64,000 bases of DNA from Parcubacteria group bacterium (GTDB taxonomy: Bacteria; Patescibacteriota; Minisyncoccia; Minisyncoccales; UBA10102), in NCBI GenBank assembly GCA_016203945.1, contig JACQLT010000001.1:6645-70644 (forward strand). The letters run 5' to 3'. Shown here piece by piece: positions 42,926-44,307 of this stretch (positions within the stretch are counted from its first letter, which is position 1; each line of letters opens with the position of its first letter). The notes beneath the pieces were generated by a model, which was given only the letters and a program-made list of their open reading frames with translations, was not told the origin of the DNA and searched no databases. The position numbers and the translations under genes are program-made.

Positions 42926-44307
42926 ACTTCTTCAATACCTCCTTTCAAGTAGAACGCCGACTCCTCTTTTGCGTCGTGCTTTCCTTCTACAATTTCCTTG
43001 AAGGCTCGCACCGTATCCTCTCGTTTCACGTAAGCTCCGGGTTTTCCGGTAAACACTTCTGCAACAGAGAAGGGCTGGGAAAGGAACCGCTGGATGCGGC
43101 GCGCCCGCCCCACGGCCACCTTGTCCTCTTCTGAAAGCTCTTCCATGCCCAATATGGCAATGATGTCCTGGAGCTCCTTGTAGCGCTGGAGGATCTCTTG
43201 CACGCGGCGTGCTACCTCATAATGTTCCCGTCCCACCAGATTGGGATCAAGGGCGGTAGAGCGGGAAGCCAGAGGATCCACCGCAGGATAGATGCCCAGA
43301 GAAGACAATTCACGGGAAAGCACGATGGTTGAGTCCAGGTGGCTGAACGTGGTGGCCGGGGCGGGATCGGTAATATCGTCTGCCGGAACATAGATAGCTT
43401 GCACCGAGGTAATGGATCCATTCTTGGTGGACGTGATGCGCTCTTGCAGTTGGCCCATATCTCCTGCCAGGGTCGGCTGGTATCCTACCGCAGAAGGCAT
43501 CCTTCCAAGGAGGACGGAGACCTCAGAGCCCGCCTGCACAAACCTGAAGATATTGTCTATGAACAGCAAAACGTCTTTCCCTGCGTCATCTCGGAAATAC
43601 TCTGCCATGCGCAACGCAGCGAGTCCCACGCGGAATCTCGCCCCCGGAACCTCGTTCATCTGCCCAAAAAGCAAAGCCGTATTCTTGAGTACGCCGGATT
43701 CCTTCATCTCCCGGTACAGGTCGTTCCCCTCTCTTGTCCGTTCTCCGACTCCGGCGAACACGGAGTATCCCCCATGTCTCTTTGCCGTGTTATGAATGAG
43801 CTCCTGCAAAAGCACGGTCTTGCCAACTCCCGCTCCTCCGAACAATCCGACTTTTCCTCCTTTAAGGAAAGGACACAGAAGATCGATAACTTTGATGCCT
43901 GTTTCAAATAATTCGGGTTCTGACTTCTGGTCGCTGATGCCAGGAGGCGGAGCGAAAATGGAAGACCGCTCTCCCTTAGCTTCTCCAAGGTTGTCAATCG
44001 GCTCTCCGAGCACGTTGAACATCCTGCCCAAGACCGATTCTCCTATGGGAACCGTAGCCGCCTTTCCGGTATCCTGCACCTCAGCCTTTCTCGTGAGGCC
44101 GTCCGTGGAATCCAGGGCGACGGTTCTCACGCGGCTTCCTCCAAGCAGCTGAGCCACCTCCAGGGCGACCGAAGAACCGTCTGATTTTTCTGCTATTAGA
44201 AGATTCTGGAGCGACGGAAGGCCTGCCTTGCCGTCAGGCAGGGATTCCGCAAACTCCACATCTACGACCGGACCCATGACTTGTACAATTTTTCCTTTAT
44301 TACTCAT
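42922..44307 (-). CDS. atpD: F1 ATP synthase beta subunit
   Basis: [10 protein letters not shown]-loop, DNIFRF; contains LPDGKAG element. Confidence 0.97.
44222..44242 (-). repeat. family B element, atpD copy
   Basis: cctgccttgccgtcaggcagg; encodes LPDGKAG. Confidence 0.85.

Follow-up and report, generated by a model that had tools for sequence, protein, structure and literature searches.

A 21-nucleotide hairpin inserted in frame into atpD and rpsS of a Parcubacteria bacterium is a probable very small non-autonomous mobile element

Rickettsia palindromic elements (RPEs) are about 100-150 bp long, are confined to Rickettsia and its relatives, and are translated as an extra surface segment that is compatible with protein function; according to Ogata et al. 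2000 ('Selfish DNA in protein-coding genes of Rickettsia') these palindromes are reportedly found in frame in genes, including essential ones. MITEs (miniature inverted-repeat transposable elements) carry terminal inverted repeats, and a target-site duplication is made by their DDE transposase. Repetitive extragenic palindromes (REPs) are short (20-40 nt), GC-rich, imperfect palindromes that are dispersed, sometimes clustered head-to-head or in tandem, and occasionally located in genes; they are non-autonomous and make no target duplication (PMC3733652). REPs also have an unpaired tag (GTAG or CGTC), lie mostly outside genes, reach hundreds of copies per genome, and are tied to a REP-flanked gene for a REP-associated tyrosine transposase (RAYT), with vertical inheritance within lineages (PMC3733652; bioRxiv 10.1101/2021.07.10.451892). 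The 'peel and paste' elements IS200/IS605 rely on hairpin recognition and single-stranded intermediates, excise precisely and leave no target duplication (PMC6006769); their left and right subterminal hairpins are distinct, their insertion point lies 3' of a specific tetra- or pentanucleotide, and they are strongly biased toward the lagging-strand template. In organelles, the mobile GC clusters and double-hairpin elements of fungal mitochondria and the coding palindromes of Nematomorpha mitochondria are GC-rich sequences of AT-rich compact genomes, sometimes in frame (PMC6649704). Here we describe a 21-nt hairpin, named T1 (CCTGCCTGACGGCAAGGCAGG on the coding strand), that is present in the genes for the beta subunit of F1 ATP synthase (atpD) and ribosomal protein S19 (rpsS) on a 64-kb stretch of contig JACQLT010000001.1 of a Parcubacteria group bacterium. 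This whole stretch is called the window.

T1 matches the window at two positions, both with the form CCTGCCTTGCCGTCAGGCAGG on the plus strand. The copies and their surroundings are as follows:

44222..44242, minus strand: T1 copy in atpD; LPDGKAG is residues 21-27
27619..27639, minus strand: T1 copy in rpsS; LPDGKAG stands between SGD and KTVIKTW
42922..44307, minus strand: atpD (F1 ATP synthase beta), host gene
27333..27716, minus strand: rpsS (ribosomal protein S19), host gene; its C-terminal tail also has a hairpin of family A (described below)
44212..44250, minus strand: host hairpin at the atpD target, with CGGAA/TTCCG arms around T1

No further T1 match was found in the 64-kb window at up to three mismatches, and the expected count was 0 in 100 dinucleotide-preserving shuffles of the window. 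An earlier sequence-only reading of this DNA had reported an identical 21-mer in the two genes, in the same orientation and frame, and had held this identity to be beyond chance. Both statements were confirmed, and the shared stretch is even 22 nt long (27618-27639 and 44221-44242). Both genes lie on the minus strand, and the coding strand of both copies is read as C CTG CCT GAC GGC AAG GCA GG, which gives LPDGKAG. As single-stranded DNA, T1 folds into a 7-bp stem (CCTGCCT/AGGCAGG) with a 7-nt loop (-6.3 kcal/mol), which replaces the 6-bp stem and 9-nt loop drawn before.

The empty atpD site, GCGGAATC^CCTTCCG, has a 5-bp stem of its own with the insertion point in the 4-nt loop, according to folds computed with and without the element. 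In the AlphaFold model of AtpD, LPDGKAG forms a loop between the beta strands of residues 14-19 and 35-40 with a lowered predicted local distance difference test score (pLDDT), and the N-terminal barrel is otherwise confident. Solved F1-beta and uS19 structures show a gap of 6-7 residues at the T1 peptide when aligned. Matches of its AtpD and S19 proteins place the window in the Parcubacteria, in the Paceibacteria/Wildermuthbacteria-like part of the candidate phyla radiation (CPR).

Empty and filled sites were found for both genes. LPDGKAG is present in three close AtpD relatives (P0001-P0003, 93-96% identical), and exactly these seven residues are absent from P0004-P0017 (90-94% identical). 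Likewise, the S19 orthologues P0123, P0124 and P0126 are without exactly LPDGKAG. Together with the solved homologues, these orthologues support the earlier proposal that the peptide can be removed from beta without leaving a gap. At the DNA level, the filled atpD allele reads GAATC, the 21-mer, CCTTCCG, and the empty allele reads GAGTC-CCTCCCC (L001) or GAAAC-CCTGCCT (L003). The sister-genome comparison thus gave both states, since three other assemblies (L002, L126, L127) carry the identical 21-mer at the same site. For rpsS, the empty allele GGAGA^CAAGACC was found in L132, which belongs to the same genome as L001, and a filled allele with the identical 21-mer in L131. In addition, rpsS with the element is present in three independent Logan run assemblies (L128-L130) that are 100% identical to the window. 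In atpD and in rpsS, the filled minus the empty allele is exactly 21 nt, with the target bases undoubled. T1 is a clean 21-nt insertion without target duplication in both genes. A MITE with its target-site duplication was ruled out by this exact difference and by the varied base at position +1.

In atpD, the sequence of T1 is more constant than its surroundings. The four filled atpD orthologues (window, L002, L126, L127) are 82-86% identical in DNA, and 34% of the third positions of their amino-acid-conserved codons are invariant. All six third positions within T1 are invariant across the four (P = 0.0016), and the next base, with which the flank completes a Gly codon (third position), is C, G, C and T. 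The invariant synonymous positions inside the unit and the varied base next to it rule out selection on the peptide as the cause of the identity. Common non-coding copies in both orientations also contradict it.

Moreover, the presence of T1 in atpD departs from the gene tree: empty L001 is the closest relative of the window and L002 (87%), and empty L003 is closest to filled L127 (90%). A single rpsS site carries T1, T2 (Giovannonibacteria CP066687.1) or T6 (L134), the latter two being related types listed below, in different CPR lineages, and the atpD loop of further lineages holds other GC-rich inserts (KGGSAAGG, KGLSAQAG). Together, these findings indicate that permissive sites were hit more than once, that the unit was lost precisely, or both, and they do not fit a single old insertion under neutral drift. 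The empty sites nested among filled atpD lineages fit precise excision and equally fit repeated gain.

Matches beyond the window were counted in three collection scans, and they show a reach of the element far outside this genome, which the sequence-only reading could not see. All counts from these scans are lower bounds, taxon proportions may follow scan order, and host taxonomy was taken from the labels in record titles. Exact T1 was found on at least 119 stretches with unrelated flanks in at least 98 assemblies of about nine phyla (one genome per species). The hosts include Bacteroidota, among them Ignavibacteria, Chlorobi-type and Balneolia members, many Patescibacteria lineages, Omnitrophota, WOR-3, Planctomycetota, Spirochaetota, Dehalococcoidia, Gammaproteobacteria and a Pelotomaculum isolate. 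Their genomes are mostly of low GC content, with a median near 38%. The empty and filled sites, the census and the collection scans all bear out the view that a repeated hairpin unit was inserted in frame into two unrelated housekeeping genes.

The wider family was defined as CCTGCCT-N7-AGGCAGG, and an unbiased scan of metagenome contigs yielded at least 129 sites. A few exact loop types dominate among the 129 sites listed:

T6, loop ACCGGAC: 21 of the 129 metagenome sites listed
T2, loop GCCGGCA: 19 of the 129
T7, loop GCCGGAC: 14 of the 129
T8, loop GCCGGCG: 14 of the 129
T9, loop ACCGGCA: 11 of the 129
T1, loop GACGGCA: 0 of the 129

T1 and T2 are one base apart (C9 to A), and T1 is a minor subtype of this large family. 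Discrete sequence subtypes are common to many phyla and to viral contigs: among the family matches listed from IMG/VR viral contigs, at least 14 are T6, at least eight T7 and at least six T2. At least nine T6 copies, several of them inside genes, are present on one viral contig of 28.8 kb (IMGVR_UViG_3300038551_000082; L292, L309, L333), which encodes a P22-like portal, a D5-type primase and a PD-(D/E)XK nuclease. These copies look like a recent burst. A query with T6 and T2 against cultured phages returned no exact copy. T1 itself is copied, because single genomes contain multiple T1 copies.

The mode of insertion was read from the junctions. Among 400 sites there are four nested copies and seven directly abutting pairs, for which chance would give about one and about 0.1, respectively, by our own estimate. 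In L012, one T1 is interrupted by another T1, and the P22-like viral contig has three T6 copies lodged within other T6 copies, at three different positions. The nested copies fix the boundaries of the unit. Of 123 copies, 109 have A or G at -1 and one has T there, and 96 have C or T at +1; this purine^pyrimidine preference is seen in coding and in non-coding DNA. With C at +1 in only 43% of copies, even a 1-nt target duplication is excluded. An extension of the stem by the flanks was also ruled out, as the -1 and +1 bases do not covary. In 8.4% of cases, a hairpin that was already there, with a stem of at least 7 bp, has the insertion point in its loop; for control purine-pyrimidine steps the share is 0.7%, a 12-fold difference. 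The unit enters unrelated sites as an exact whole, with a preference for purine^pyrimidine, and it is overrepresented in hairpin loops, including those of its own copies.

With respect to orientation, the non-coding copies are split 31:32 relative to local GC skew (8-kb windows, a noisy test), which shows no replication-strand bias, and 33/63 relative to the direction of the neighbouring gene. In long open reading frames (ORFs), 49 copies share the LPDGKAG frame and a handful read PALPSGR. Frames with Cys or TGA are nearly unused by coding T1 copies, and the coding copies of the wider family read LP[AT]G[KQE]AG. Most simply, this pattern is read as insertion that is blind to orientation, with purifying selection acting afterwards on the coding copies.

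Some T1 copies have composite surroundings. In several Ignavibacteria (L030, L037, L041, L124, L063), T1 occupies the same loop position of a widespread hairpin, GATYCCGAAACAAG^TTCGGRATGAC, which is either a composite element spreading as a unit or a hot target. T1 was also seen inside larger repeats of about 150-270 bp that are 88-96% identical across contigs of one genome, namely L032 (2215-2491), L065 and L079 in Ignavibacteria GWC2_36_12 and L039, L068 and L084 in Lutibacter; T1 therefore also hitch-hikes inside other repeats. An Arenibacter metagenome-assembled genome (MAG; L036, 1700-1900 and 6400-6664) has intergenic mosaics of several small GC-rich hairpins beside T1 (CCCGCTGGTGGCGGG, GGCGCGACGCTCGCGCC, GTCATCGCGAGG...CGACGAAGCAATC), reminiscent of clusters like bacterial interspersed mosaic elements (BIMEs).

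Three variant copies complete the set of this hairpin family in the window (family B, two exact and three variant copies, all five inside genes):

6388..6405, minus strand: 18-nt variant CCTGCCTGCGCAGGCAGG in the N-terminal extension of rpsI (S9), read as LPAQAG in the same frame type
7232..7252, minus strand: decayed 21-nt copy CCTGCCTCGCAGCAAGGCGGG in the C-terminal tail of rpoA, read as LPRSKAG
5805..5825, plus strand: decayed 21-nt copy CCTGCCTCGCCGGTAGGCGGG in a PEGA-domain gene (4776-5918), read as PASPVGG, the other tolerated frame, with a partial copy just ahead

The decayed copies show that conservation of the unit is not absolute. The general pattern CC[CT]GCC-N(3-10)-GGC[AG]GG has seven matches in the window and 0.16 expected, and with the collection scans this upholds the membership of T1 in such a family, which had been proposed from the stem alone.

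How does this family compare with the systems described so far? Like REPs and their doublets (REPINs), the 21-nt unit is a short, GC-rich, imperfect palindrome with dispersed copies and no target duplication. In contrast to them, it has no tag (within the four bases 5' of 121 T1 copies, GTAG was found in 2 and CGTC in 0), all five window copies are intragenic, identical types occur in many phyla and on viral contigs, and no linked RAYT was found among the 24 window ORFs or as a recurring neighbour at 239 loci. The suggested REP/RAYT link therefore did not hold as membership, given the missing tag, the cross-phylum spread and the lack of an HUH gene in the window or recurring at the 239 loci. 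The likeness to RPEs is that seven codons are added in frame to atpD and rpsS, at a loop site in the model. RPEs differ in being five to seven times longer and clade-specific, whereas the 21-nt unit is found in CPR bacteria, Bacteroidota and others. Chemistry of the IS200/IS605 type would account both for the clean empty sites and for the preference for hairpin loops. However, the 21-nt family consists of one symmetric hairpin with only a purine^pyrimidine preference and no strand bias. It resembles MITEs in being small and non-autonomous and differs in having no target duplication. The mitochondrial GC clusters and palindromes are organellar, lineage-specific and usually longer, and no bacterial counterpart of them with cross-phylum sequences was found in the literature searched. 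An intrinsic terminator, which a GC hairpin alone would match, was ruled out because the copies lie inside ORFs and have no T run downstream. Element sequences and encoded peptides, searched as strings, gave no description of the family in the literature covered, which left most subscription journals outside, so that an earlier description is possible. The family is apparently undescribed; it is REP- and RPE-like in concept and is best filed with intragenic palindromic mobile elements.

Considering these results, we think that T1 is probably a very small non-autonomous hairpin element, if mobility, mechanism and spread are taken as one account. With regard to the parts, the comparison of sequences makes it likely that the 21-nt hairpin is a mobile insertion unit, and an HUH-type mechanism, with chemistry like that of IS200/IS605 and RAYTs (PMC6006769), is a tentative best guess from the anatomy that is less likely than not. 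The unit would move as a single-stranded hairpin. A trans-acting enzyme would recognise the strand-symmetric stem and cut or copy it and paste it without target duplication. The two T1 copies landed in loop-coding parts of atpD and rpsS. Proteins should tolerate T1, since its length is a multiple of three and the LPDGKAG frame has no stop and no Cys, and selection in coding DNA would leave almost only this frame. Precise excision and/or repeated hits on permissive sites would account for the patchy pattern of filled and empty sites among sister species and for the missing sequence decay.

Spread between phyla may occur via the transfer of carrier genes, for example restriction-modification genes, and via phages. 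Near-identical hsdR flanks surround T1 in an Olavius spirochaete symbiont (L080, 300-320) and in a Methylococcaceae MAG, a gammaproteobacterium (L111), which shows transfer of the carrier gene between phyla. By eye, type I restriction-modification genes (hsdR, hsdM, hsdS) recur among the carriers, also in L034, L074, L110, L136, L161 and L229.

Several observations weigh against this account. IS200/IS605 elements have guide sequences and differing left and right ends, for which a single 21-nt hairpin is too small, and the strand bias typical of these elements is absent (31:32). The missing strand bias, target word and linked gene weigh against simple membership in IS200/IS605 or RAYT systems. 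A comparison of the 24 window ORFs with Pfam revealed no transposase, HUH protein or reverse transcriptase, and ORF clustering of the 239 loci (119 of them first) revealed no non-host gene family recurring beside the hairpins. Exact T1 is absent from IMG/VR viral contigs and PLSDB plasmids as well as from the 129 metagenome family sites listed. Its presence in many phyla could therefore partly be due to a recurrent C-to-A change of the commoner T2 and not to transfer. Furthermore, its perfect conservation could reflect a function at the DNA level.

The recurring ORFs at the 239 loci are host genes, that is, C-terminal-domain proteins of the type IX secretion system (T9SS), histidine kinases, DnaK, aminoacyl-tRNA synthetases and type I restriction-modification proteins. 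When the loci were compared by BLAST with TnpB, serine recombinase and IS200-like TnpA, only L168 and, weakly, L097 matched. In L097, a Y1 transposase is located 5 kb from the hairpin. It was rejected as the mobiliser, as it is flanked by its own, different AT-rich repeats, and this also counts against the proposed enzyme. L168 (Ga0209398_1007536, 1-3875) contains a perfect 1250-nt fold-back, each arm with three tandem T9 copies and one more T9. This extra T9 adjoins an IS607-like unit (serine recombinase and TnpB, judged from ORF sequences) and a VRR-NUC-like gene. Either the inverted duplication is real, or the assembly folded back at the hairpin array. The window ORFs include two adjacent PD-(D/E)XK (PDDEXK_1) nuclease genes (53258-54109 and 54135-54980), a pair that is conserved in the relatives L003-L006.

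Other explanations have to be considered besides a mobile hairpin with a dedicated enzyme. One would be 21-nt 'nano-transposons', the smallest known mobile units that are autonomous in effect, which would need no enzyme of their own or of their lineage and would use a ubiquitous replication or repair activity or a widely shared fixed-template writer. They would explain the identical types in about nine phyla and phages and the LPxGxAG loops in essential proteins of CPR bacteria with their minimal genomes, and we consider them unlikely. The hairpin could also be a cis-acting DNA or RNA signal with a function of its own (protein binding, DNA uptake or structural punctuation, for instance), which selection or a transmission drive would keep while the peptide is a tolerated by-product; this seems to us just as improbable. 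In its favour, all 21 bases are invariant across four species with diverged synonymous sites, the stem is conserved while loop types differ, the structure is strand-symmetric, and CPR bacteria are thought to depend on DNA uptake. However, the unit arrives by insertion into essential genes, is sparse (two exact copies in 64 kb), has decayed copies in the same window and is missing from the same sites of sister genomes. Nested copies and arrays make little sense for a signal, and many phyla and viral contigs are unlikely to have one receptor in common.

A fixed-template process might instead write the constant 21 nt at nicks or breaks, either by a reverse transcriptase with a dedicated RNA template or by replication and repair enzymes of general occurrence that capture an abundant hairpin oligonucleotide, without any dedicated transposase for recognition of both ends. 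The discrete exact types do resemble a few master templates, no linked transposase was found at the 239 loci, a bona fide phage genome was invaded too, no target bases are duplicated, and the purine^pyrimidine preference is weak. On the other hand, neither a reverse transcriptase nor a template gene was seen in the window, the preference for hairpin loops and for the unit's own copies speaks for recognition of structure and not for random breaks, and the scheme is inferential throughout. We regard it as quite unlikely. Local independent origin by template switching or quasi-palindrome correction, with gene conversion behind the identity of atpD and rpsS, is very improbable. Template switching is known to yield palindromes, and the atpD target already has CC(C)T and a small hairpin, but the same 21 bases with an asymmetric loop recur at 119 or more sites with unrelated flanks in many phyla, the rpsS target has nothing in common with the element, and whole units are nested within each other. 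Finally, although the window comes from a metagenome-assembled genome and its exact AtpD protein is not on record, an artefact of assembly, sequencing or adapter is practically inconceivable, since the chimeric contig feared at first is excluded by three independent, identical run assemblies across rpsS and three further assemblies at the atpD site (four in all with the atpD copy), isolate genomes carry T1 (Arenibacter, Aquimarina, Fulvivirga, Pelotomaculum), and no artefact would produce 49 coding copies in one shared reading frame.

Other repeats were noted in the window and in related genomes. Family A consists of the twin hairpins CCGCC-N3-GGCGG and CCCGCC-N3-GGCGGG, in frame, with six pattern matches in the window and 0.34 expected. 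It is found at three window sites, whose peptides are AQGGPATGG, AQGGSASGG and KDGSASGGK:

12963-12991: family A in the N-terminus of alaS
18428-18456: family A in a family 2 glycosyltransferase (GT2) gene
27340-27366: family A in the C-terminal tail of rpsS

In other CPR lineages, S19 has similar KGGSASGGK tails and a KGGPVSGGK insert (P0125, P0149, P0182, P0201), and KGGSAAGG is present in AtpD P0021. In metagenome contig Ga0156312_125 (L208), a 1136-aa ORF that looks by eye like a CPR-like class I aminoacyl-tRNA synthetase holds several GC-rich insert peptides (SPLMGEDKGGG, SPARGEARRGG, PLPQGEGRVRE, SPTGGEE), which suggests that many unrelated hairpin insert families are active in the same genomes. 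A 37-nt direct repeat (78% identical; 9389-9425 and 36001-36037) starts with the palindrome ATATCGC-N4-GCGATAT followed by ATCAAG and may be a shared operator or promoter. An Rfam scan of the window returned only a tRNA.

To a specialist, the 21-nt size, the identical types across phyla and viral contigs, and the self-nesting are surprising. If truly mobile, the unit would fall far below MITEs and RPEs in length, and the literature searched gave no mobile unit that is shorter. The discrete cross-phylum types and the self-nesting make the mechanism experimentally tractable in cultured carriers, namely Arenibacter, Aquimarina celericrescens KCTC 52897, Fulvivirga lutimaris KCTC 42720 and Pelotomaculum propionicicum MGP. 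The family could also serve as a sharp marker for recent exchange between phyla and between hosts and phages. A mobile unit of this kind would also produce in-frame indels, from a source so far unrecognised, in bacterial proteins of the highest conservation (ATP synthase, ribosomal proteins, DnaK, aminoacyl-tRNA synthetases). The family is relevant to the gain of lineage-specific loops in CPR and other low-GC lineages and is a possible confounder of alignments and phylogenies built from ribosomal-protein markers.

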